Source: Alphaproteobacteria bacterium
GTDB lineage: Bacteria; Pseudomonadota; Alphaproteobacteria; Paracaedibacterales; VGCI01
Direction: 5' to 3'
NCBI GenBank assembly: GCA_019746225.1
Contig: JAIESE010000013.1
Location: 106,063-170,062 of the forward strand
Length of the DNA: 64,000 nucleotides
The notes under the pieces are model-generated. The model had not been told where the DNA came from. It was given only the letters and a program-made list of their open reading frames with translations, and ran no database searches. This document shows, piece after piece, positions 5,142 to 52,650 of the stretch. Every line of letters begins with the position of its first letter. The first letter of the stretch is position 1. The position numbers and the translations under genes are program-made.

Positions 5142-5837
5142 ATGAAAAAAAACCACATCATTCTGATTGTCCTTGGAACGCTCCTGGCTCTTCTCTTCGG
5201 CTACCTGATCTGGCGCTTTCCCCACGTTATGGAGTCGGAAGATCACTTTGGACATTTTTTCTACTCGATCCTTCTTCTATGCCTTCTGGTGCCTTCCTTT
5301 TTTTTACATCGGGAATTTCCCCATGCGCTGAAATCCGCCGCCGCTTGGGTTGGCATTTTCTTGGTTTTGTTCGTCGGCTATAGTTATCACGAGGATTTGG
5401 GGAGTGTTTGGGAGCGTCTGAAGAGCAACCTCTTGCCCTTTGCTGGCACACAACACAGCGATGGATCCATCACCTTCACCCGCGCGGAAGGGGGACACTT
5501 TTATGTGGAAGCGCTTGTGAATGGCACCCCCATACACTTTATGGTGGATACGGGGGCCACGCGCATCGCGTTGACGCAAGAAGACGCCAAGCGGGCAGGA
5601 TTTGATGTGGATAATTTACCCTACTCCGAGCTCATTCACACGGCCAATGGCGACACCATGGCGGCCCCCGTTTATCTCAATGAATTTAAGATTGGGCCGA
5701 TCGTCATGACCGATCTTTCGGCTTCCGTGAATAAGAATCTTTCTACACACTCCTTGCTGGGCATGAATTTCTTGAAGAAACTCAAAGGCTTTAAGATCGA
5801 GGGCAACCGCTTGACCTTTGAAATTCCTCAGTCTTGA
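5142..5837 (+). CDS. Retropepsin-like aspartic protease, TIGR02281 type, membrane-anchored
   Basis: N-terminal TM helices followed by FMVDTGATRIALT (DTGA active site). This architecture is typical of the alphaproteobacterial TIGR02281 family. Confidence 0.8.
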   Translation: MKKNHIILIVLGTLLALLFGYLIWRFPHVMESEDHFGHFFYSILLLCLLVPSFFLHREFPHALKSAAAWVGIFLVLFVGYSYHEDLGSVWERLKSNLLPFAGTQHSDGSITFTRAEGGHFYVEALVNGTPIHFMVDTGATRIALTQEDAKRAGFDVDNLPYSELIHTANGDTMAAPVYLNEFKIGPIVMTDLSASVNKNLSTHSLLGMNFLKKLKGFKIEGNRLTFEIPQS

Positions 5838-11552: not shown

Positions 11553-11631
11553 TTTCCTTATTCATATCCAACACCTGATTTAATGAGATGCTTATTGCAT
11601 ATCATAGGACTACGGAAATATAAAGATGGCC
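11553..11631. repeat. Copy 1 of a ~79-bp direct repeat; this is the 5' UTR and upstream region of the oxygenase gene
   Basis: The core CCTGATTTAATGAGATGCTTATTGCATATCATAGGACTACGGAAATATAAAGATGGCC (11574-11631) recurs at 13430-13487 with one mismatch. Weaker homology extends from TTTCCTTATT. Confidence 0.9.
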
Positions 11632-11847
11632 AATAAACTCTATAATAGTCCATGTCAGTTTACCCATTTATAAGGATTTTGCAATAAGCATACCTCAAAG
11701 CCAATTGAGGTCATCACCACTCCGGGACTAAAATAGCACCCTACGCACTTCACGAATTTTCTTAGTGGGTGAGAGAACACCTCTTAGGGTATGGATGAAA
11801 TATTTTTTATTGCCAAAATCATGCTCTAAACTATACAAACAATGAAA

Positions 11848-11870
11848 CTAGCGTATTTTTACGGTATTGC
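11848..11870 (+). promoter_or_regulatory. Conserved box CTAGCGTATTTTTACGGTATTGC overlapping a putative -35 (site 1)
   Basis: Identical to 49918-49940 and near-identical to 45865-45887. TTGCAT is followed after 16 nt by TATTAT. It lies ~170 nt upstream of the 12042 ATG. Confidence 0.5.
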
Positions 11871-12041
11871 ATAATATAAATATCTTGTTATTATAAAAAA
11901 CTTCAAACGTTTTCAGTTGTTTTTGCTATTAGAAAAGCTCATTTAGCAAGCATGCTAAATATTATATATATTGATGCGCCACAATGCAAAACCAATTTAT
12001 AATTTAATTTTTATATTTAAAAAATAAGGCAAATATTTAAA

Positions 12042-13109
12042 ATGAAGTTTAAAAATTTAATAATTAACATAATTATACCATATATTTCTCTTTTTATTAT
12101 GATATTAATATCCCGTTTTATGATGGGCAATACGTCAATAGGGGTATTTATTGGATTTATTGGATGGTTAATCTTCTTGGCAGGGTATTGGTGGATCAGT
12201 TGTGTGTCAGCGACCTGGAGAAATGAGAAAGGACATTTTTTACATTATTGTACCAGAAAGGATGAATTAACATCGATCAAAATTTTTGAAAATGAGGACC
12301 CAAAGAAAGCAAAAATTATTGAAAGCAGCTATGCCCTCGTCGCCGCAATTAGAGTCAACAAGGAACAAACTCCGAAGCTAAAAGATAGCAAGTTTGGCGG
12401 CGTACCATATTGGCCTAAAGGCAAAGAATACCCAGTAACATCAGGGGGAAAAAGATTAGGCATGCTTGCCCAAATTAACTGCAAAGATGTGCCAAAAGAA
12501 TTAGGCTGGCCAAAGCGGGGGATTGTTCAGTTCTTCCTGAATGATGATGAGGATCATGATTCCTTTCATCCCTTAAATAAAAATCGCTCCCGCGTCATAT
12601 ACCATGAAGACACCAAGTTAGATTCAATAGAATTGAGCGTGGAGCAAGAGCCCATTTACTGGGGAAAAAACTACCCATTCAATTTTTCTCAACCCATGAA
12701 AATTGACTTCATGCTTGGTCATATGTTGCCCGTTCATCCTTCGGCAGATGTACTTTTAAACCCAATGCTAGCAGATCTTCTTGGGGCCACTGACTTTAGA
12801 TATGACACAAAAAATCCAGACCTTACATCCTCCTACTGGATCTATTGGGATCTCAAATGGCATGAATCATTTCCTAATTTCCCTAAACACTATATTGGGG
12901 GTTTTCCCGCAACAGACTATATTGCTGGGATGAGATTTGAGAATTACCCTCGTTATTCTAATCTTCTGCTTCAGATAAGTTCGGAGGGAAAAAAGGATGG
13001 GATCGGCTGGGTTGACGGAGGCCAGGGACAGTTTTTTACTTCTTCTCAAAAGCTAAAAGATAAAGATTTTACAGACGTCTGCTTTGCGGATTATTTTTCG
13101 CATTTCTAA
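12042..13109 (+). CDS. DUF1963 (YwqG-like) domain protein with two N-terminal TM helices
   Basis: KFGGVPYWPKGKEYP...MLAQINC...GIVQFF matches the blocks I recall for DUF1963. AT-rich gene preceded by a ~400-nt very AT-rich leader. Confidence 0.65.
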   Translation: MKFKNLIINIIIPYISLFIMILISRFMMGNTSIGVFIGFIGWLIFLAGYWWISCVSATWRNEKGHFLHYCTRKDELTSIKIFENEDPKKAKIIESSYALVAAIRVNKEQTPKLKDSKFGGVPYWPKGKEYPVTSGGKRLGMLAQINCKDVPKELGWPKRGIVQFFLNDDEDHDSFHPLNKNRSRVIYHEDTKLDSIELSVEQEPIYWGKNYPFNFSQPMKIDFMLGHMLPVHPSADVLLNPMLADLLGATDFRYDTKNPDLTSSYWIYWDLKWHESFPNFPKHYIGGFPATDYIAGMRFENYPRYSNLLLQISSEGKKDGIGWVDGGQGQFFTSSQKLKDKDFTDVCFADYFSHF

Positions 13110-13154
13110 TCAATCTTAAATCTTGATACTCATGATGAGCCCGGTACAAATTCA

Positions 13155-13405
13155 CCCGTACAAATTGAGTATTAACGCAATCCACGGCTTGGGTGAGCTG
13201 AATAGATTTGGGATCTTCCATGGGCAACATGGGCAACATGAAAAACAAATCAAGCTGAACTTGCTGATCCCGTGGCAACAGATCAAACACCATGACCCCT
13301 GCTTTATGGTACGCAAAGCCGAGCTTAAATATACTCTCAAATGCTTTCGTTGTGGCTTTAATCAGACTCAAATCATCATCAACGGGACAAGGCAAAATAA
13401 GGGTT
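13155..13405 (-). pseudogene. Internal fragment of umuC (duplicate of 13942-14184)
   Basis: The translation PCPVDDDLSLIKATTKAFESIFKLGFAYHKAGVM...DPKSIQLTQAVD.VNTQF is near-identical to UmuC residues in the full copy. There is a 9-nt internal duplication (MLPMLPM). It lacks the 5' ~900 nt and the last ~115 nt of the gene. Confidence 0.9.
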
Positions 13406-13408
13406 ACA

Positions 13409-13487
13409 TTTCCTTATTTAAATTCACTGCCTGATTTAATGAGATGCTTATTGCATATCATAGGACCACGGAAATATAAAGATGGCC
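13409..13487. repeat. Copy 2 of the ~79-bp direct repeat, fused to the umuC fragment
   Basis: See 11553-11631. It starts 3 nt after the point where umuC homology ends. Confidence 0.9.
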
Positions 13488-13826: not shown

Positions 13827-15095
13827 CTACCGCGCATACGCCTTGGGGAGATCCTGCCAGCAGGTGGTGTAAGCGGGTGAGACATTGCGTTTCTGGTCCC
13901 GCCATCGCAAGCGCTTTCCGCAGGCGGCCGAAAAAAGTGTCCCCCGTCCAAATTGAGTATTCACACGATCCACGGCTTGGGTGAGTTGAATAGATTTTGG
14001 GTCTTCCATGGGCAGCATGGAGAAAAGATCAAGCTGAATTTGCTGATCCCGGGGCAATAGATCAAGCGCCATGACCCCTGCTTTATGGTACGCAAAACCG
14101 GGCTTGAAGATGCTCTCAAACGCCTTCGTTGTGGCTTTAATCAGGCTCAAATCATCATCAACGGGACAGGGCAAAATAAGGGTTGCGTGATTTCGATATT
14201 GGGGCTGATTTTTGCGAAAAAAATTCGTGCGAATCTCCACCAAAACACTGCGCGTCTTTAAGCCATTGATGCGCAACTTTTGGGCCAATCGGGTGGCATA
14301 GGTCGCAACCGCCGCTCGAACATCTTCTTCCTTGACCATGGGCACGGCAAAGCTACGGGATACTTGGATTGATTTTTTAGGATCCTGAATGTCCTCGACC
14401 TCAAGGCAAGACAGCCCATTCAGTTCATGAATGAGACGCTCCCCCACAACCGTAAAGGTGCGCCGCATCCAACGAGGATCGATTTCCTTCAACTGCAGCC
14501 CTGTATAAATACCATAAGCCTGCAGGCGCTCCGTGATGCGACGTCCAATGCCCCAAATGTCCTCAATCTTGATGGCCTTTAGCGCCCCATTCACACGCGC
14601 GTCCGTATCCAAAACACACACGGACCGATACGCCCCCACCCGCTTAGCAAAGTAGTTAGCCACCTTCGCCAAGGTCTTTGTCTTAGCAATGCCGATGGAC
14701 GTGGGAAGTCCCAAAGATTGATAGATCTGATTCCTCAAATGATGCGCCCTTTCCTCTATGCTCACCACACCTGAAAAGTCGATAAATGCTTCATCAATGG
14801 AATAGACTTCGAGGCGCGGAACATGAGATTCAATCAGCGTCATCATGCGCGCGGACATATCCCCATAAAGGGAAAAGTTTGACGAAAAAACGGCAACGTG
14901 ATTTTTAAGGAGAATATCTTTGATTTTGAAATATGGCGCGCCCATGGGGATACCGAGTGCCTTGACCTCTGCGGATCGGGCAATGATGCAGCCATCGTTA
15001 TTCGACAGAACCGCAACGGGACGCCCCACAAGATCGGGGCGAAAGACCCGCTCGCACGAAGCAAAAAAATTATTGCCATCGAGAAGACCAATCAT
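13827..15095 (-). CDS. umuC: Y-family DNA polymerase V catalytic subunit UmuC
   Basis: MIGLLDGNNFFASCERVFRPDL...SIDEAF motifs and a C-terminal SPAYTTCWQDLP. Overlaps the upstream umuD-like gene by 4 nt. Confidence 0.9.
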   Translation of the reverse strand: MIGLLDGNNFFASCERVFRPDLVGRPVAVLSNNDGCIIARSAEVKALGIPMGAPYFKIKDILLKNHVAVFSSNFSLYGDMSARMMTLIESHVPRLEVYSIDEAFIDFSGVVSIEERAHHLRNQIYQSLGLPTSIGIAKTKTLAKVANYFAKRVGAYRSVCVLDTDARVNGALKAIKIEDIWGIGRRITERLQAYGIYTGLQLKEIDPRWMRRTFTVVGERLIHELNGLSCLEVEDIQDPKKSIQVSRSFAVPMVKEEDVRAAVATYATRLAQKLRINGLKTRSVLVEIRTNFFRKNQPQYRNHATLILPCPVDDDLSLIKATTKAFESIFKPGFAYHKAGVMALDLLPRDQQIQLDLFSMLPMEDPKSIQLTQAVDRVNTQFGRGTLFSAACGKRLRWRDQKRNVSPAYTTCWQDLPKAYAR

Positions 15096-15712: not shown

Positions 15713-16007
15713 AAATCCTGCTTGATTGAAACTTGTACAACAATCATAACAACAAAAATTTGAAGATGTCTAATAAAACAATTTGAGGAAAATTTTCCCT
15801 CCTTAAATTTAAGGGACACGCTCCTCGAGCTCCAGAGGGAGAGGCCAGGAAATAGCGAAAATCTCATAAATCGAAACACTTGGCGCATTTCATCTTGTCA
15901 TCTTCCCCCACCTCGTGGCATAAAGAGAAAACATTTGGATATGACTTTAGTAGCCAATGCTGGAAAACATCCTAAAAATTACCCAATAATAGTGGAGTTT
16001 TGCAATC

Positions 16008-41593: not shown

Positions 41594-41740
41594 CTGTTGC
41601 TCTCATAAAATTATTAATAAATTGGGATTCAAAATATATATAGTTATTTATTTTAGAAATGCAATAAATAAATTTTTAACTATGGAGAATACTAACCAAA
41701 TGACGACGACGGCTGAAATCTCACTTCTTATACAGATCGA

Positions 41741-41822
41741 CCACCGTGTCTCGACACGGGTGAGATCTTCTTTAGCATTTGTCAGACTTTGCATGACTTT
41801 CATAAATTCTTTGGGATGGTTA
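41741..41822 (-). pseudogene. Decayed duplicate of the 3' end of the ABC-F gene uup
   Basis: The translation NHPKEFMKVMQSLTNAKEDLTRVETRW compares with NHPQEFMKVTEALTKAKEELARTETRW at the Uup C-terminus. By eye about 70% nt identity to 42701-42782, same orientation. Confidence 0.6.
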
Positions 41823-41927
41823 ACGCCTCCAGAGGCTTTTAATAATAATTTACGCCGTGTTGCACTTCGCGCTCGAAGGTGGCGTAGGTTCTTGTTTACA
41901 TATATAGACAACTATTTCTTGTTTCGT

Positions 41928-41953
41928 TTATGTAAAAACTTTATGTAAAAACT
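41928..41953 (+). promoter_or_regulatory. Perfect 13-bp tandem direct repeat TTATGTAAAAACT x2 upstream of the 42018 gene
   Basis: Units at 41928-41940 and 41941-41953, about 65 nt upstream of the ATG. Confidence 0.35.
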
Positions 41954-42017: not shown

Positions 42018-42647
42018 ATGAAGGAACAAAATATGATCAACGCAATACTAAGTAAAATCAATCAACTAGTTTTTATGGGGCTTTTTCTTGTAAGCAGTGT
42101 CATAGCCATGGACCAAGTTGAAAAGAAGGTAATAACACCTCAGAATTCAACGGTCGTTTATTATAAGTTAGCAAATGAAGCTTGCACACTCCTTCTACAA
42201 GAGTACGCAGCAAAAGGCGGTGATGAGATCGTCCCTGGTTTTGCCCATGAGACGGTAACTGCTCAAAACGCTATAACACGGGTTAAAACAGCTTTCCGGA
42301 CAAACATCCTTGGGTGTGGATTGCATCCGGGAATTCCCGAAAAACTTTGGAGTGAGAAGCCCTATAGCGGGTTGAGGGGTACAATAAAATTCGGAAATCA
42401 CAGATTGATTCTTAAGGTTCGTGAACTGTACGAGCAATACTATGTCCTTAATGATGGTGTCAAACTAAGAGACATAGTCAATAATTTTGACTATATCGAG
42501 CATCCTTACATTGATTATAGTAAAGGCTTTTCTCCAAAAATGCCTGGAGAGATGAACGAGGGCGAGAGAGCCTATGTTCAAGGGTTAATAGAGGCGTATG
42601 ATCAGGCAAATCCTAATCAACAAACCCCTGATTGTGTTGTTATGTAA
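42018..42647 (+). CDS. Secreted hypothetical protein (ORFan)
   Basis: Signal/anchor segment LVFMGLFLVSSVIAMD. 209 aa, AT-rich. Confidence 0.5.
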   Translation: MKEQNMINAILSKINQLVFMGLFLVSSVIAMDQVEKKVITPQNSTVVYYKLANEACTLLLQEYAAKGGDEIVPGFAHETVTAQNAITRVKTAFRTNILGCGLHPGIPEKLWSEKPYSGLRGTIKFGNHRLILKVRELYEQYYVLNDGVKLRDIVNNFDYIEHPYIDYSKGFSPKMPGEMNEGERAYVQGLIEAYDQANPNQQTPDCVVM

Positions 42648-45693: not shown

Positions 45694-45864
45694 ACTATAG
45701 CCGTATCGTTAATCATTATCGTTTGAAGCATCTCCTTCGTGAAATTTAAGCGATTCTGTTGAAAAAAGCCAGAAACTTGTTGGGGAGGCATCTCCATATA
45801 GGTATTTTTATTCGATGGAATATAACGTCTGTTTTTTTAAATCGTCCCTCTCTCAGAAGTGTCG

Positions 45865-45887
45865 CTAGCGTATTTATACCGTATTGC
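45865..45887 (+). promoter_or_regulatory. Conserved box CTAGCGTATTTATACCGTATTGC overlapping a putative -35 (site 3)
   Basis: 20 of 23 nt match sites 1 and 2. TTGCTG is followed after 16 nt by TATATA. It lies ~55 nt upstream of the ATG at 45941. Confidence 0.45.
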
Positions 45888-45940
45888 TGTTATTAAAAAC
45901 GCGAATATATACTAAATCTCAATTTTTAGGAGATGCCACC

Positions 45941-46771
45941 ATGAAACTTCAATCGTTGCTATTCGCTTTTGCCGCAAATACCCTCATGCCTTATCCGCTA
46001 ATGGCGAGTGATAGCAGAGTTCCAGATCTACCAATAGAAATGGATGTTCCCAAGTGTGCAGGAGTCGCTTCCCAAGGGGAAGTATTGAATCTGGAGGAGA
46101 AAAAGACTCTATTATTGAGCGCGTGTGGGGTTGAAAAAGACCGTCAAGCACTTATCAACGCCTTTAATGAACCTTCTTCTGAGGATGCATTAAGGCAAGT
46201 ATTAGCCTGGATGACGGAAGATAGGCTTAAAAGGAGCACAAAGACTTCAAATTGGTCTTCGTTTATGCTTGGTGTTCTCAAAATATTGGAAGAGTTTGAA
46301 GATGATAAACGACATGCCTTTGTTTTACGGCTAGAACAAAACGGCGTTATGACTAGGTGTAGTAATATTTTTGATATCCATCATTATCTCCAGATCTTTA
46401 GGAATTCTACTACTGAGAAAATGAATCAAGCTATGAGATGGGTTAAAGAAACGGGAATTTGGGAGGTTTGCAAAAGCGGTGAATTCCATTTACCTAACTT
46501 GGTGGAATTAGTAAAAGACTATGACCAGGAGCAACTCGGTTGTGTAACATCATTTCTCAAAACAACAGGGATTTTGAGCCAATATTGCCATCAAAATAAT
46601 CTGTATGAACCCAGAAGGCGTCTCGCAGAGATGCTTAATCTTCTTAAAACGTGCCGCACAGAACAACTAGAGTTTCTTGCGCAATGGATGAAAGCAACGA
46701 CTTACATCTATAAGCACTTGGATGAGGGAAACGGGCGCTTGGGAGAAACTCAGCTCCTGGTACTGCTTTAG
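45941..46771 (+). CDS. Secreted repeat protein, N-terminal part (probably split from 46722..48410 by a frameshift)
   Basis: AGGAG RBS and the ATG at 45941 give the signal peptide MKLQSLLFAFAANTL; the track TTG at 45884 lies inside the box. Recurrent W(M/V)(K/R)E(T/S)G-type modules. Confidence 0.55.
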   Translation: MKLQSLLFAFAANTLMPYPLMASDSRVPDLPIEMDVPKCAGVASQGEVLNLEEKKTLLLSACGVEKDRQALINAFNEPSSEDALRQVLAWMTEDRLKRSTKTSNWSSFMLGVLKILEEFEDDKRHAFVLRLEQNGVMTRCSNIFDIHHYLQIFRNSTTEKMNQAMRWVKETGIWEVCKSGEFHLPNLVELVKDYDQEQLGCVTSFLKTTGILSQYCHQNNLYEPRRRLAEMLNLLKTCRTEQLEFLAQWMKATTYIYKHLDEGNGRLGETQLLVLL

Positions 46772-48410
46772 TAATTTTATTCTTTTAGGTAAGAGGTATG
46801 ATGAATCATTATTTATCAAAGCCTTATCTGAAAATTATGTCACTAGTGCTGGCCTTACTCAGGAAATCTTTTTTGACTTTTTTATGAGACATTTTCCGGA
46901 TGGTGACTCGGTAGATTCTTTGCGCAAATTAAAAGCTGCTGCTACCTGGATTAATGAATCATATTCAGAAAAATTTTACTCTAGTGAGGTAAAAGAGCTA
47001 TTTTCTATTCTCAAAAAATACGATTTTGAATATTTAAAGCTAATTACATCCGTCCTAATGGAAATGCGTTGGTTGGATACAATGCAGCCTTGTAATTTAA
47101 CACTCGCATTAAGAAGATTAAAAAACTGTAACAAGGAAACCTTCACAACAATTATTTCATGGATGAAAGAATCTGGGGTTTTGGCAACCTGCAATGATGT
47201 GGAAAGTTTTCTTAACGTAATCAGTTCCATCCAAACATGTGGGCCAGAGGACCTCAGAAATCTTATAGAACAAGGGGTTGTTCCAGAAAACGTTATTGAA
47301 GTTTTGATCCGCGTGTTGGGTGAAACCCATCCCGTCACCCAAAATCTCATAGAATTAGCCATTGGGTATGACAATCAACGAAACCCCAATAGCCCATTTG
47401 CAGTTTACTGTGAAATGAGGAAAAAGAGTAGTGATGAGGTTGAACACCGCCAACTTCAATTAACGACAGGTCTATCTTTGCGGTTAAATAGTATCAAGGA
47501 ACCTCGACCAGCAATCAGTATTCATATGCCTTCCAATGTTTGGAAAAGACTTTTTGAACAGTTTGAGAAAATAGATCCATCTACTTACACTGAACTTTTG
47601 GGTGATATTTCCCTAGAAACTATCTTGAAACTTAAAAATCACCACGACATTGTAAGGCTTCTGGACCCCAAAGATAGTCTAAAAGTTAATAAAAAGATCT
47701 CTTCGCACAGTCATATGTTGAGAGAAGTTCTTAAAAAAGCGCAAGAGGATTTTAGACTAGACCACGAGAATATTGGCAGTTTTGTACAGCTCTTGGTCAA
47801 CATCACAACGTGTCAAACAGGAAAGCTCAACGGGATTACTCACAGTTATATCTATATGAACCAGGGTCGCGCGCTCGATGAAAGTGTATTGGGGGCAGAA
47901 GGGTTTAAGCAAGAAATTGTCAGTTTCTTTAAGGAAGAATTACGACGCTTTAGAGAAGCAACCTTAGCGGCAATTGTGAGGAATATTACGAGGAGGCCAC
48001 AGGCTGATCCTCATGATCTTTACTATGTACGTGGCATTATTGGTCATGAGACTGGCCTCTTTTTTGAGAATGAGACCCCAACGGTTGACATTTATGCTTG
48101 GGGTGTCTCTGGGAAATTGAGGGGAAAAACCAAACAACAATTGTTGGATTTGTTCTATCAATATTACAAGGTGGAAGATGTGGTGGATCGCGTTCACTCG
48201 ATGTTAAACAATGGCTCAATTAGTATCTCAAATGAGTACTTAAGGGATGAGGCTATGGACGAAACATTGAGTGCGTGGGATCCTGAACTCGTGGTGCTGG
48301 ATGGTCAACAAAAGCCTTTGGGTCTTACCCCAAAAGCAGCACAGCGCCTTCTGGAAATTCTCGGTTTTGTCGTGAACGAAAATAAACCAGAGGAAACCAT
48401 GAAAACTTAA
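46722..48410 (+). CDS. Repeat protein, C-terminal part with a unique ~330-aa C-terminal domain
   Basis: The same module (TWMRETGAWEKL, SWMKESGVLATC) continues here. This frame is open from 46692 and overlaps the upstream ORF by 80 nt. Confidence 0.55.
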   Translation: MRETGAWEKLSSWYCFSNFILLGKRYDESLFIKALSENYVTSAGLTQEIFFDFFMRHFPDGDSVDSLRKLKAAATWINESYSEKFYSSEVKELFSILKKYDFEYLKLITSVLMEMRWLDTMQPCNLTLALRRLKNCNKETFTTIISWMKESGVLATCNDVESFLNVISSIQTCGPEDLRNLIEQGVVPENVIEVLIRVLGETHPVTQNLIELAIGYDNQRNPNSPFAVYCEMRKKSSDEVEHRQLQLTTGLSLRLNSIKEPRPAISIHMPSNVWKRLFEQFEKIDPSTYTELLGDISLETILKLKNHHDIVRLLDPKDSLKVNKKISSHSHMLREVLKKAQEDFRLDHENIGSFVQLLVNITTCQTGKLNGITHSYIYMNQGRALDESVLGAEGFKQEIVSFFKEELRRFREATLAAIVRNITRRPQADPHDLYYVRGIIGHETGLFFENETPTVDIYAWGVSGKLRGKTKQQLLDLFYQYYKVEDVVDRVHSMLNNGSISISNEYLRDEAMDETLSAWDPELVVLDGQQKPLGLTPKAAQRLLEILGFVVNENKPEETMKT

Positions 48411-48443
48411 TGAGGCAGCTTCAGCAAGGCAGAAGATAAAGAC

Positions 48444-48623: not shown

Positions 48624-49654
48624 TAGAATTCGCCTCCTTTGATGAATTGAGATTTGAGAACGGCATGGGATAAAGGCTCCTGATCATGGTCTTTGAACCA
48701 GGCTTTAAGGGCGGCTAAATCGGGGTGTTCCAAACAGCTATGAAGCATTTTCCACATGCGGGGGAGATGATTGAGGTAATGGGTTTTGCCGTCCCGCACC
48801 GCAAGGCGGGTAAAGATGCCGATGTTTTTGGCATGGCGTCCAGCGGCCAATAGGCACCCTGATGATCTCAAAGCTTCTTCATCCAAATGAGGAAAGGCCC
48901 CTAAATATCGTTGCCAGCAATGCTCGATGAGCGCAGGCTCTAAATCGAGGCGTTCATCCTCCACAAGGGAGATAAGATCATAAGCAACGGGTCCCCATCC
49001 CGCATCTTGAAAATCCAGAAGTCCACAGGCGGCAACATCAGCGCGATCTTTCAAGAGCATCAAATTATCCACATGATAGTCCCGCAATGCTAAGGTATGG
49101 GGACTCTTAACTGCTTTTTCAAAAACAGGTCTCCAGAGATCGAGATAGTCTACTTTCTCGGAATTGGACAAGCTCTTATTGCAATTCGCAGGCACATACC
49201 AGTCAACAAATTGGGTGACTTCTCGCAGCATATGATCAACATCATAAGCGGGGATAAATTCTGGGCAATCCGTTGCCCGCTGATGAAGAGCGATGAGGGT
49301 ATCGACCGCCAACTCATAGAGGGGATAGGGATCATGGCCTGCTTGCAACAGTTTTGTATAAGTCGTCTCACCAAAATCCTCTATGGCCAGTAACCCTTGG
49401 GACAAATCTTCGGCGAGGATGGCAGGCGCTGAAAATCCAAGATCCTTCAAATGGGATGCCACGCGCACAAATTGGGTGGGATTTTCAGGAGGTGGTGCAT
49501 CCATCAAGAGTCCCCCCTCATAGCGGAAATATTGTCGCTTCGAGGCATCACAAGGCAACGCCGTCAGGGATTGATGGCCTAAAAAGAGATGCCGTTGCGC
49601 TACCCGGTCGAGGGGATCAACTTGTGGTTTCTGGTAAGGTTTTAAGCGACTCAT
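48623..49654 (-). CDS. Aminoglycoside-phosphotransferase-fold kinase (AmgK-like)
   Basis: LRDYHVDNLMLL (catalytic loop) and LLDFQDAG. The position after tsaE is common in alphaproteobacteria. Confidence 0.72.
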   Translation of the reverse strand: MSRLKPYQKPQVDPLDRVAQRHLFLGHQSLTALPCDASKRQYFRYEGGLLMDAPPPENPTQFVRVASHLKDLGFSAPAILAEDLSQGLLAIEDFGETTYTKLLQAGHDPYPLYELAVDTLIALHQRATDCPEFIPAYDVDHMLREVTQFVDWYVPANCNKSLSNSEKVDYLDLWRPVFEKAVKSPHTLALRDYHVDNLMLLKDRADVAACGLLDFQDAGWGPVAYDLISLVEDERLDLEPALIEHCWQRYLGAFPHLDEEALRSSGCLLAAGRHAKNIGIFTRLAVRDGKTHYLNHLPRMWKMLHSCLEHPDLAALKAWFKDHDQEPLSHAVLKSQFIKGGEF

Positions 49655-49825
49655 GGGGTCCTACTAAGGTTATGGTAATTTCTCGCGTTGTTTCATTGAC
49701 GATTTTTAATGTGATATCAATTCGTCGGCGGGGCAATAAATCAGCCAACCGCTCCGGCCATTCTATCAAGCATATGGCCTCATGAAAAGCATCTTCAAGG
49801 CCTAACTCAAAGTTTCCTGAGGGTA
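49608..49825 (-). pseudogene. Duplicated 3' end of tsaE (copy of 51475-51692)
   Basis: The core 49613-49803 differs from 51480-51670 at about 6 positions by eye. The translation FELGLEDAFHEAICLIEWPERLADLLPRRRIDIT.KIVNETTREITIT.VGPHESLKTLPETTS equals the TsaE C-terminus. Confidence 0.92.
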
Positions 49826-49917
49826 AAGAAAAATTTGAAGATCTGTAAGATAGAGACCTTTTTAGCAAATTAAACTGATATTCCTGAAATAACTCACCCT
49901 CTTTGAAACTTTAGGAA

Positions 49918-49940
49918 CTAGCGTATTTTTACGGTATTGC
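49918..49940 (+). promoter_or_regulatory. Conserved box CTAGCGTATTTTTACGGTATTGC overlapping a putative -35 (site 2)
   Basis: Identical to site 1, with 26 nt identical when flanks are included. TTGCAA is followed after 18 nt by TACAAT. It lies ~80 nt upstream of the 50019 ATG. Confidence 0.5.
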
Positions 49941-50018
49941 AAAAATATATTTTGTGTCTCTACAATAATGCTCATTTTTTAATAAGTACTTTATGTTTAT
50001 TAAAATTTATTATTTAGC

Positions 50019-51434
50019 ATGGAGAAAAAAATACATAAATATTTAAAACAAACAACTTTTGCTTTATTAGTGACAGGACTCTGTTCTCAAATAGGGTTTA
50101 CATCTGAAGAGGGTAAGGAAAGTAAGAAAAGAAAGTCTTCTCATTCTTCTATCGCTCATACTGAACGCTTACAGGGAGATCAAACTTCAGCAGTAATATC
50201 TCCTATGCTTAAGTCCCAGAAGACTGAGGATGAACCTCAAATAGATCTTCGTAATCTTGGTAAGCTTTTTGAGTTGCCTTATCACGTTCGTATGCAACTC
50301 TACGGACTTTTGGATAGCACAACTCTTAAGTTCTTAAATATTCAAAACAGAGCATTACGATGTGAGATCTTTCAACAAAGAGGAGGTAGAATAGACTTAA
50401 AAATAAACACTCCTGTAGAAGCTTTAAGGGGGATGCTTAGGAAAGTCGGAAAAATAGACCTAGTGGCTAACTGTCTGAGATATTTGAATGTTCAAGGCTT
50501 GAGTGTTCTTGCAAAGCAAGATGGAACAGTTGATAAAACTCAATTCTTGGATGACGAAATCGTGGACCTCCTTGCCAGGTGCAAAAATTTGAAATCTTTC
50601 GCATTGTCTAGCTGTATAATCTGTCCCGGTGGTAAGAATTGGACTGAAGAAAGTACGGAAAATTGGGGAAATAACCAAAACCCTTTAAGACCTGTGGCTA
50701 GAAACGCCCTTACTCGCCTTTGCGAGGTTATATCAACAGAAACTTTATGCGAAGAGTTGATTTACGATTCAACTCCTTATTCTGAAAATTGGGAGTGGGA
50801 CCACGAAGATTGCCATGTTAATGGTCCTTTCGATTCCGATTCTGCCCTAAAAATTGTGCGTAAATCTTTTAATTTTTCAAAATTGAAAAAATTAAAAATT
50901 GGTTTAAATTTTGATACCACCTCCCTTTCTAAAATAGTTAAAGAAAAAATAGAATATATGACTTCATTGGAATATTTAAATTTACATTTTTGTGGGGATT
51001 TTCAAGAACTATTTATTGAGCTCCTGGGAAAAGTCAAAAATAATAGCAAACTAAAAGTATTTAAATTAGAATCTGAAGAATACTCATACGGCTTTAATCT
51101 TAGAATGCTCACTGAAATTTTTAATTCTGATCTATATATACAAAGAATATATCTTCATAATTTATGGTTTGACTGTGATCATCAAAATATTTTTAGGGAA
51201 TTATGCCAAGCTGTAAACCAATCTAGAAGTTTAGTTAAACTGAAATTTTTAGCACTTAAATTGCCTTATGGACAAGGTTTTTATAATGGGCTCAACCTCT
51301 TATTCAGGATAAAAGTTTTTTGCCATAATTGTCGTGAACCAATAGAAAACAAATGTTTTGATCCGAAGAATTTTACAAGGAAAAGCTTAATAATTGAGAC
51401 TTTTTGCGAAGAGTGCAAGGCAAACGGTGAGTAA
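50019..51434 (+). CDS. Eukaryote-like F-box-like / leucine-rich-repeat protein with a signal peptide
   Basis: LFELPYHVRMQLYGLLDSTTLKFLNIQNRALRCEI fits the F-box spacing (LPxx...L..L......L). It is followed by RNI-type LRRs (LKSFALSSC, LKKLKIGLNF, LEYLNLHFCG, LKVFKLES, LVKLKFLALKL). C-terminal CxxC...CxxC. About one-third GC by eye. Confidence 0.6.
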   Translation: MEKKIHKYLKQTTFALLVTGLCSQIGFTSEEGKESKKRKSSHSSIAHTERLQGDQTSAVISPMLKSQKTEDEPQIDLRNLGKLFELPYHVRMQLYGLLDSTTLKFLNIQNRALRCEIFQQRGGRIDLKINTPVEALRGMLRKVGKIDLVANCLRYLNVQGLSVLAKQDGTVDKTQFLDDEIVDLLARCKNLKSFALSSCIICPGGKNWTEESTENWGNNQNPLRPVARNALTRLCEVISTETLCEELIYDSTPYSENWEWDHEDCHVNGPFDSDSALKIVRKSFNFSKLKKLKIGLNFDTTSLSKIVKEKIEYMTSLEYLNLHFCGDFQELFIELLGKVKNNSKLKVFKLESEEYSYGFNLRMLTEIFNSDLYIQRIYLHNLWFDCDHQNIFRELCQAVNQSRSLVKLKFLALKLPYGQGFYNGLNLLFRIKVFCHNCREPIENKCFDPKNFTRKSLIIETFCEECKANGE

Positions 51435-51484
51435 TGGGTCCAGTTTTTAAATTCGTCGTCTGGCCATCCCTTCAGTTGAGGAGA

Positions 51485-51946
51485 TCAACTTGTGGTTTCT
51501 GGTAAGGTTTTAAGCGACTCATGGGGTCCTACTATGGTTATGGTAATTTCTCGTGTTGTTTCATTGACGATTTTAAAAGTGATATCAATCCGTCGGCGGG
51601 GTAATAAATCAGCCAACCGCTCCGGCCATTCTATCAAGCATATGGCCTCATGAAAAGCATCTTCAAGGCCCAGTTCAAACACTTCCTCGGGGTCTTTGAG
51701 ACGATAAAGATCGCAATGCCACACTTCGCCTTGAGGGGTATCATAAGCTTGTACAAGCGTGAAAGTCGGACTGGGGACATCTATGTCTTGACCAACCATA
51801 GTTTGAATGAGAATGCGCGCAAATGTCGTTTTCCCGACGCCCAAATCCCCCCACAAGGCAATCACGTCTCCTGGCCGCAAAGCTTCTGCCAGAGGCTGCA
51901 CCAAGCTACTGAGGTCTTGTTGAGTGAGGGTGTAGGTGAATGTCAT
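51485..51946 (-). CDS. tsaE: tRNA t6A biosynthesis ATPase TsaE
   Basis: WGDLGVGKTTFAR (P-loop), SPTFTLV and HCDLYRL. Confidence 0.9.
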   Translation of the reverse strand: MTFTYTLTQQDLSSLVQPLAEALRPGDVIALWGDLGVGKTTFARILIQTMVGQDIDVPSPTFTLVQAYDTPQGEVWHCDLYRLKDPEEVFELGLEDAFHEAICLIEWPERLADLLPRRRIDITFKIVNETTREITITIVGPHESLKTLPETTS

Positions 51947-51961
51947 ATATCTTACAACTTA

Positions 51962-52285
51962 CTATGCTGCAACAACATGTGTTACTGCGGGACGAAATTT
52001 TGAATGGTTTCTTTTGATGACAATATCAACATCCCAATCGAGTAAATTGAGGAGATGGATTAAGCGATCAATAGAAAACTTGTGAAGACGTCCTCTAAAC
52101 AAATCAGAAACATCAGGTTGCTTTAGACCCAAGACACGGGCTGCCTGCGTCTGAGTCAGTTTTCTCGAAATGATGGTTTTTTGGATCTTTCGAGCCAATT
52201 CAGCCTTAGCCAGAACTTCCTCAGGCTCTTTAATCTTTAGGTCAGCAAATATATTATCGCTCGCCTTAATAATTTTTTCCGTCAT
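51962..52285 (-). CDS. XRE-family HTH antitoxin (HigA-like)
   Basis: LTQTQAARVLGLKQPDVSDLFRGRLHKFSIDRLI HTH. 4-nt overlap with the upstream toxin gene. Confidence 0.8.
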   Translation of the reverse strand: MTEKIIKASDNIFADLKIKEPEEVLAKAELARKIQKTIISRKLTQTQAARVLGLKQPDVSDLFRGRLHKFSIDRLIHLLNLLDWDVDIVIKRNHSKFRPAVTHVVAA

Positions 52286-52650
52286 TTCTTTCTCCTTTCA
52301 TAATCTTCTTGAGCTCTTTTAAACCGCGCCTCAATCAGATCAATTTCTTTCTTTGGTGTTGCAATTCCATGCTTAGACTTTTTTTGAAAGGCATGGAGAA
52401 CATATATAGCTTCTTTAAGTGTGACTGTATAAACAACTCTAAAGGTATTAGTGTTATGATCTTCAACAATCTCTAAAACTCCTGATCCCTTAAATCCTTT
52501 TAGAGGTTTTACTGAAGAATGTTTTTCTCCCATTTGTGCTAGGTAGAGAGCATAACCAGCTTCTTCTCGAACCTCCTCAGGAAAGTCTAGTAGATCAATT
52601 TTTGTGCTACCAACCCAATACAATGGTTTTATCACACCTAACTCCCTCAA
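52282..52650 (-). CDS. RelE/HigB-superfamily toxin (Gp49/DUF891-like)
   Basis: LKGFKGSGVLEIVEDHNTNTFRVVYTV...IYVLHAFQKKS matches the Gp49-like HigB family. Toxin-first gene order. Confidence 0.8.
   Translation of the reverse strand: MRELGVIKPLYWVGSTKIDLLDFPEEVREEAGYALYLAQMGEKHSSVKPLKGFKGSGVLEIVEDHNTNTFRVVYTVTLKEAIYVLHAFQKKSKHGIATPKKEIDLIEARFKRAQEDYERRKK

Follow-up and report, generated by a model that had tools for sequence, protein, structure and literature searches.

What is the role of a 23-bp sequence that stands, nearly letter for letter, in front of three unrelated genes within one 64-kb stretch of bacterial DNA? The stretch analyzed here (the window) comprises 64,000 nucleotides (nt) of contig JAIESE010000013.1 (assembly GCA_019746225.1) from an uncultured, amoeba-symbiont-like alphaproteobacterium of the Paracaedibacterales. 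The sequence, CTAGCGTATTTWTACSGTATTGC, which we refer to as the box, occurs at window positions 11848, 45865 and 49918, on the + strand every time. A sequence-only reading of this DNA had proposed that the box marks a dedicated regulon of host-interaction genes, with a conserved cassette end or recombination sequence as the alternative. We report here, as a feature new relative to that reading, that all three genes following the box are low-GC insertions, opposite in strand to the conserved gene strings around them. We consider the chances about even that a tandemly binding regulator uses the box as an operator or activator site, in a geometry like that of OmpR/PhoB sites, and we conclude that it is not itself a cassette end or recombination site.

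A discrete 23-bp sequence composed of two tandem 11-bp units

The three copies of the box are as follows:

11848..11870, + strand: box copy 1, CTAGCGTATTTTTACGGTATTGC; units TAGCGTATT (11849-11857) and TACGGTATT (11860-11868)
45865..45887, + strand: box copy 2, CTAGCGTATTTATACCGTATTGC; units TAGCGTATT and TACCGTATT
49918..49940, + strand: box copy 3, same letters as copy 1

The copies agree at 21 of 23 positions, the variable ones being position 12, in the A/T spacer (T/A), and position 16, the degenerate S of the second unit (G/C). A run of 26 nt is unchanged between copies 1 and 3 (AACTAGCG...TTGCA), a similarity that BLAST stretches to 33/34 nt (94%). We observed three matches to the box in the window, compared with 0.00 expected from dinucleotide-preserving shuffles even when three mismatches were allowed. 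No fourth copy was found in the window with up to 6 mismatches in 23 positions, and none was found on the minus strand of the window. Similarly, a search of the window for GTATT-N6-GTATT with up to one mismatch returned only the three boxes, with 3.8 matches expected for this loose pattern. In an alignment, the three upstream regions showed no similarity beyond the limits of the box, which begins with CTAG and stops with TTGC in all three copies. Because these boundaries are sharp in every copy and the flanks are unrelated, we favor reading the box as a functional unit in its own right over a duplication in decay.

The sequence-only reading had described two GTATT half-sites starting 11 nt apart, and this spacing holds in 3/3 copies; the positions of the box, the identity of copies 1 and 3, their shared run of 26 nt and the unrelated flanks were likewise reproduced. 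The repeat unit is longer than GTATT: in every copy, TAGCGTATT is followed 11 nt on by TAC[G/C]GTATT, such that two tandem 11-bp units (TASSGTATT plus 2 nt) cover nearly all 23 positions. The 9-mer TASSGTATT (TA[G/C][C/G]GTATT) has seven matches in the window, compared with 0.96 expected, and six of the seven are box units; the seventh is a lone match within a coding region. The shorter SSGTATT is not enriched in the window. A direct-repeat test for a pho-box-like site (6-9 bp core, 10-11 bp period) was positive for each of the three copies, in agreement with the OmpR/PhoB-type geometry claimed previously, in which two direct repeats lie in 11-bp phase as in pho-box-type sites.

About a dozen assemblies from JGI and Logan contain the same clone, and in them the three intergenic regions are 100% identical. 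Since all of these sample assemblies come from a clonal population without differences, there is no polymorphism footprint. Independent metagenome assemblies break around box 1: contig L004 starts at the equivalent of window position 11871, the first base past the box, and contigs L096 and L097 end at window positions 11822 and 11805, in the intergenic region near box 1. Such breaks are as expected if the shared sequence of 26-34 nt acts as a short assembly repeat.

A 20-mer related in structure, GCGTATTTTTACCGTATTGC, is kept between genes in three related contigs of another, unrelated organism with 56% GC (L054 3640-3659, L055 4175-4194 and L067 4310-4329). The intergenic block that contains it has a third GTAT upstream in the same 11-nt phase, and a GTAT/ATAC palindrome nearby; in L054 it lies 3' of a gene for a PAS-LuxR-type regulator and 5' of a C_GCAxxG_C_C-like gene, both read by eye from open reading frame (ORF) translations. 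Tandem GTATT may thus be used as an operator in other organisms too.

The box lies upstream of three unrelated genes

Each copy lies between genes and points to a + strand gene, with 171, 53 and 78 nt between the end of the box and the ATG for copies 1, 2 and 3, respectively. Orientation and placement are not random, in that 3/3 copies lie on the + strand upstream of a + strand gene. The upstream neighbor is in each case a divergent − strand gene, encoding a 2-oxoglutarate (2OG)-oxygenase-like protein, a major facilitator superfamily (MFS) transporter and an APH-family kinase at loci 1, 2 and 3, respectively. The downstream genes, whose N-termini were read by eye from translations, are as follows:

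12042..13109, + strand: gene 1, 355 amino acids (aa), hydrophobic N-terminus, DUF1963; GC 39%
45941..48410, + strand: gene 2, frameshifted, 276 aa + 562 aa, signal-peptide-like N-terminus; GC 40%
50019..51434, + strand: gene 3, 471-aa orphan, signal-peptide-like N-terminus; GC 34%

The three genes are mutually unrelated in sequence; all are low in GC and all encode a hydrophobic N-terminus that resembles a signal peptide or a transmembrane segment. The product of gene 1 is a probable membrane protein with a long N-terminal hydrophobic stretch. The DUF1963 domain assigned to gene 1 by the sequence-only reading is matched in Pfam with E=1e-35. The gene that the same reading had called a split repeat-protein gene, gene 2, is indeed split, and proves to be a frameshifted member of a family of ~830-aa proteins. 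It consists of two overlapping ORFs (45941-46771 and 46722-48410; locus tag K2Y18_02665) with the frameshift at about 46722-46771, and the same split is present in every independent sample assembly checked. We found gene 2 homologues in 70 clusters by exhaustive search and 8 by indexed search, as single proteins of ~830 aa. Proteins of the family span 700-2250 aa and have in common a conserved C-terminal domain of ~370 aa, with the motif LVNITTCxTGKLNGITHSY and invariant residues C364, H374 and H431. This domain had no match to Pfam, to PDB sequences or, using a moderately good model, to PDB folds. It may be a new effector domain, and gene 2 may here be a pseudogene. Gene 3 had been described as an F-box/LRR gene; the corresponding signals, F-box_4 (E=0.02) and LRR_8 (E=0.3; leucine-rich repeat), both lie under the Pfam cut-offs, giving this description weak support. 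The structure model of gene 3 is of low confidence (pLDDT 37) and too poor to use, with a repeating strand-helix pattern visible. Gene 3 has no homologues among 5.8 billion proteins, and there are therefore no paralogous promoters to compare. For genes 2 and 3, the label "effector-like" is reasonable as a tentative one.

We next list the promoter-like signals. The box terminates in TTGC(A/T), and a -10-like hexamer follows 16-19 nt past TTGC in each copy:

11889..11894, + strand: candidate -10 of copy 1, TATTAT, spacer 16 from TTGCAT; fails consensus scan
11892-11897, + strand: alternative -10 of copy 1, TATAAA, spacer 19
45908..45913, + strand: candidate -10 of copy 2, TATACT, spacer 18; fails consensus scan
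45906-45911, + strand: alternative -10 of copy 2, TATATA, spacer 16
49961..49966, + strand: candidate -10 of copy 3, TACAAT, spacer 18 from TTGCAA; passes sigma-70 consensus scan

These hexamers carry little weight, because AT-rich DNA has many of them. Of the fusion of the box to a -35/-10 pair that had been proposed, the hexamers stand, and the functional promoter is weakly supported. A private promoter behind each box is plausible.

The box genes are lineage-specific insertions

Using synteny with relatives and flanking duplications to set the junctions, we delimited three inserted segments:

11632..13408: inserted segment 1, with box 1 and gene 1, between 79-nt direct repeats
45786..48443: inserted segment 2, carrying box 2 with gene 2 and bounded by the promoter region of MFS and the stop of yacG
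49812..51474: inserted segment 3, with box 3 and gene 3, between 205-nt direct repeats

The insertion at locus 1 was recognized from internal evidence only, and those at loci 2 and 3 by comparison with relatives. At locus 1, the direct repeats (11553-11631 and 13409-13487) are 91% identical, and the insertion holds a 254-nt copy (13152-13405), 87-89% identical, of an internal segment of umuC (13940-14184). This layout fits a tandem duplication of which the first copy was partly replaced by cargo. At locus 3, the direct repeats (49607-49811 and 51475-51679) are 95% identical and derive from the junction of the tsaE 3' end and the APH 5' end. The 205-nt duplication leaves both of these overlapping genes intact; relatives have one copy, with tsaE and APH overlapping. 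At locus 2, yacG and MFS are adjacent in relatives, without the insertion. In three relatives whose ABC-F protein is 86-88% identical, the string tsaE-APH-yacG-MFS-ABC-F is unbroken, with neither the box nor gene 2 or gene 3. In DNA of a sister species (ABC-F 96% identical, DNA 88-93% identical), homology with the window ends at 45785, and the gene 2 site is occupied by an HTH_3 module and a second small ORF (HipBA-like by eye). Based on the ABC-F protein, the closest relatives that bear a name are two protist endosymbionts, Candidatus Paracaedibacter symbiosus (63% identity) and Candidatus Finniella inopinata (59%).

The inserted segments have a GC content of 33-40%, compared with 45-51% for the conserved flanking genes. 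Each inserted gene is antisense to the conserved − strand gene string that it interrupts, and it needs its own promoter because it is antisense to the surrounding operon. The 79-nt, 205-nt and umuC repeats are the only internal repeats of the window besides the box, and loci 1 and 3 have curiously similar repeat spacings (1856 and 1868 nt). With flanking duplications that are still 91-95% identical, the insertions of the box genes look recent. This lineage appears to slot new genes antisense between conserved genes, or into their ends, with duplication of the interrupted end, and each newly slotted gene would bring or gain its own promoter.

The box lies inside the insertions, 217, 80 and 107 nt from the left junction at loci 1, 2 and 3, respectively. 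We found no inverted or second copy of the box at the other end of the cargos, and no matching inverted repeat around locus 2 or 3. No transposase or integrase Pfam domain was detected among the ORFs scanned, no shared motif was seen in the short 3' tails of the cargos, and no convincing terminators were found. Moreover, a fourth insertion of the same style, which carries a 209-aa orphan gene (42018-42647), likewise antisense and lacking from the sister species, has no box. Since the box lies inside the junctions, has no partner, no recombinase among the ORFs scanned and no 3' motif, and is missing from the fourth insertion, the insertion process and the box are separable, and the box is not itself a cassette end or recombination site. 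The cassette-end alternative of the sequence-only reading was thus correct in that the genes are cassette-like insertions, and incorrect in placing the box at a junction or recombination site.

The fourth insertion is flanked by a decayed copy of an ABC-F 3' end (41722-41823), which is closer to the ABC-F end of the sister species than to that of the window itself; this hints that the insertion may have been imported from a related genome. Upstream of its gene is a different tandem repeat of 13 nt, TTTATGTAAAAAC x2, at 41927-41952. In addition, a Gp49/HTH_37 (HigBA-like) toxin-antitoxin pair (51962-52650) lies between tsaE and ABC transporter genes; in relatives this spot is empty in one case and holds a platelet-activating factor (PAF)-acetylhydrolase-like alpha/beta hydrolase in another. 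The stretch from tsaE to ABC-F is a hot spot for lineage-specific insertions.

The box is known from one clonal population

We searched for further copies beyond the window. The box was absent from a further ~15 kb of this organism's sequence, lying outside the window on both sides, including the region upstream of a gene for an LRR protein. A scan of a metagenome collection that did not include the source samples, using 17 specified bases, gave 70 single matches, mostly in coding DNA of unrelated organisms; a scan of GTDB genomes, whose representative set does not include the source metagenome-assembled genome (MAG), using 18 specified bases, gave 17 single matches in unrelated taxa; and a scan of IMG/VR gave one match. 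The matches from all three collections are at chance level. Three sites, all within a single clonal population, are therefore the full set of known copies.

Regulatory sequences were also noted near gene 2 homologues elsewhere. In MAG GCA_034675325.1 (contig L130), the gene 2 homologue and a neighboring orphan share an upstream module of ~50 nt (CTTCTCAGTTAACTnTATCAAACTTAACTGAAAnGACTATACATGAAAA; L130 8349-8550 and 12011-12258). The same contig encodes an OmpR-type response regulator and a histidine kinase (L130 3178-5177), a pair that lies 3 kb away. OmpR/PhoB-type two-component pairs thus exist in the wider group. Two gene 2 homologues from different organisms have GCGCTAGA ~115-140 nt before the start codon (L118 about 5595-5610 and L119 about 1220-1235), which may be coincidence.

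The box as a candidate operator

The box is a discrete 23-bp unit with sharp common boundaries, composed of 11-bp tandem units and placed in constant orientation 5' of genes; for these reasons we interpret it as a probable protein-binding site. A regulator of transcription is favored because the box sits just upstream of the inserted genes. We propose that the two head-to-tail 11-bp units (xTA-S-S-GTATT-x) would dock two regulator subunits one behind the other along one face of the helix, with the box just upstream of, or overlapping, the -35 of each inserted gene's private promoter. Binding of the regulator would switch the three genes on together, in a class-II, pho-box-like arrangement in which the proximal subunit could stand in for a poor -35 (TTGCNN); a less likely alternative is that binding would shut the three genes off together. 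The predicted binder is most likely an OmpR/PhoB-type winged-helix response regulator; a MarA/AraC-like monomer with two helix-turn-helix motifs, or another tandem binder, would be indistinguishable from it by sequence. Co-regulation would be biologically sensible, because the genes are unrelated and yet all low in GC, lineage-specific and equipped with a hydrophobic N-terminus.

Several observations weigh against a working operator. There are only three near-identical copies and no degenerate relatives, and in real regulons the sites usually vary in quality. The box is absent from the syntenic regions of relatives and from the sister-species contig with the gene 2 site, leaving no phylogenetic footprint, and it is absent upstream of gene 2 homologues in three other organisms. 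Other effector-like genes within the 79 kb of window and flank (64 + 15 kb) lack a box, namely those encoding Sel1, patatin, DnaJ and phospholipase D (PLD) proteins, the LRR gene just past the window, and the fourth inserted orphan. These 79 kb encode no response regulator and no other candidate for a DNA-binding protein. Finally, the sigma-70 consensus scan is passed by only one of the three copies (copy 3), and the distance from the box to the -10 varies between copies. Of the dedicated host-interaction regulon proposed by the sequence-only reading, then, a discrete and directional box is established, and the regulon, with three copies and effector-like neighbors that lack the box, is not. 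The set of three sites makes a good hypothesis rather than a demonstrated regulon. It is possible, and on balance doubtful, that a regulator specific to this lineage uses the box as its operator and thereby brings newly inserted orphan genes, encoding secreted or membrane proteins, under one host-interaction program of an uncultured Paracaedibacter/Finniella-like endosymbiont.

Alternative explanations

The association with insertions invites an explanation in terms of mobility, in which the box would be a site (arm-type or subterminal) for the recombinase or transposase behind the movement of the single-gene cargos, or a carry-over from a shared donor replicon, for example a plasmid or an island, with no present role in transcription. 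All three box genes are lineage-specific, low-GC insertions, the only other internal repeats of the window flank two of them at oddly similar spacings, and the all-or-none conservation of the box is more like that of element ends than of operator families. However, the box lies well inside the left junction at every locus, is not repeated in either orientation at the far end of the cargo, and is accompanied by no transposase or integrase among the ORFs scanned against Pfam; the fourth insertion has the same architecture and no box; and the half-sites are direct rather than inverted, which is unusual for recombinase core sites. We therefore consider a role in mobility unlikely. A non-functional relic, meaning a promoter-proximal segment that was copied by gene conversion or shared through 5' ancestry and has not yet decayed, would account for how alike the copies are, copies 1 and 3 matching over 26 nt, and would be consistent with insertions that look recent (duplications 91-95% identical) in a clonal population. 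A neutral relic should have boundaries that are ragged and differ from pair to pair, whereas the boundaries are equally abrupt in 3/3 copies, and it would leave the 11-bp tandem structure as a coincidence; we regard this origin as decidedly unlikely.

Promoters of phage-type single-subunit RNA polymerases are about 23 nt long, directional and highly conserved, and the box, with 23 nt, a single direction, all-or-none conservation and a place directly upstream of genes, resembles them. It might alternatively be the core promoter for an alternative or extracytoplasmic function (ECF) sigma factor, given that GAAAC/GGAAC before copies 1 and 3 resembles an ECF -35. Against a core promoter of either kind, copy 2 has GTCGC in place of the AAC motif, which in ECF promoters is paired with a CGT -10 over a spacer of about 16-17 nt; the GG-N10-GC of sigma-54 is absent, with TTTTTA/TTTATA 12 nt upstream of TTGC; the half-sites are 11 nt apart, compared with the ~17-nt spacer of a -35/-10 pair; and no gene for such a polymerase or sigma factor lies nearby, rpoD alone being seen, just past the window. 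We judge a special polymerase or sigma factor to be very improbable.

Two further candidates were rejected. The first is a LexA/SOS box: gene 1 has umuDC as its neighbor, but no GTATT motif is present upstream of umuD. In alphaproteobacteria, LexA boxes take the form of the direct repeat GTTC-N7-GTTC. Just upstream of the umuDC operon, at about 15730-15760 on the minus strand, we noted TTGTTGT-N5-TTGTTGT, which is unrelated to the box and is a possible divergent LexA operator of this lineage. The other is an RNA element: there are no Rfam matches in the window, and a possible 4-bp hairpin of copies 1 and 3 is not kept in copy 2.

Significance and comparison with known systems

For the intracellular alphaproteobacteria of the Paracaedibacter/Finniella/Holospora group, which either have no cultures or are difficult to manipulate, effector repertoires are guessed from eukaryote-like domains alone. 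A sequence tag on co-regulated, newly acquired genes for secreted proteins would offer an independent means of finding effectors, as PmrA and CpxR boxes have done, and would also point to a host-sensing regulator. If the box does serve a lineage-specific host-interaction program, it would rank as the first cis-regulatory code to be defined for effector-like genes of this alphaproteobacterial group, analogous to PmrA in Legionella, and would allow the effector set to be predicted genome-wide from sequence alone. If the regulon is real, it would represent a known kind of element in a poorly studied group, useful for finding effectors and conceptually no surprise.

In the literature, we found no published regulator motif matching GTATT tandem repeats, and nothing on regulators of Paracaedibacter. 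Dot/Icm effector genes of Legionella and Coxiella are preceded by PmrA and CpxR boxes (cited in PMC3814349); according to the same paper, alphaproteobacterial effector genes had no described cis-regulatory element, and it was able to propose no more than a weak 10-nt motif, RRRSNTTTTY.

Short conserved sequences associated with single-gene, lineage-specific, low-GC insertions are also a feature of integron attC sites, of other cassette ends and of the ends of insertion sequences (IS) and miniature inverted-repeat transposable elements (MITE). Unlike these, the box has no inverted repeat, no partner copy and no recombinase, and lies 80-217 nt inside the junction. An attC site is found downstream of its gene, whereas the box is found upstream, and a fourth comparable insertion does without it.

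The box also shows a likeness to PmrA and CpxR boxes of Legionella and Coxiella: these are tandem-repeat, promoter-near response-regulator sites that are well conserved from site to site and are common to unrelated, horizontally acquired, AT-rich, scattered genes, which in those organisms are effectors. The PmrA effector box has the consensus cTTAATatT-N2-cTTAATatT, which the box does not match, its core being GTATT. It differs from both boxes in host (alpha- as opposed to gammaproteobacteria), in core (GTATT as opposed to TTAAT or GTAAA) and in number, since those regulons have tens of members and there are three sites here. Their targets are Dot/Icm effectors, whereas the DNA analyzed here contains no proven effector and no genes for a type IV secretion system, the sole secretion-type genes seen being E and F genes of the type II secretion system/type IV pilus (T2SS/T4P) type.

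Pho boxes are direct repeats with an 11-bp period that are bound head-to-tail by dimers of the OmpR/PhoB family. Like the pho box of PhoB in E. coli, the box consists of two direct repeats with an 11-bp period in one fixed orientation to the gene; each repeat has a conserved core of ~7 bp followed by a less conserved or A/T-rich spacer of ~4 bp; and the site appears to stand where a good -35 is missing. The two differ in core sequence, which is SSGTATT here and CTGTCAT in the pho box, and in the number of nearly identical sites, of which there are three here. They also differ in position, as the pho box ends ~10 nt before the -10 and the box about 19-22 nt before it, if the -10-like hexamers are real. 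By analogy with these systems, the box would work like a pho, PmrA or CpxR box, and yet it lies outside those sequence families.

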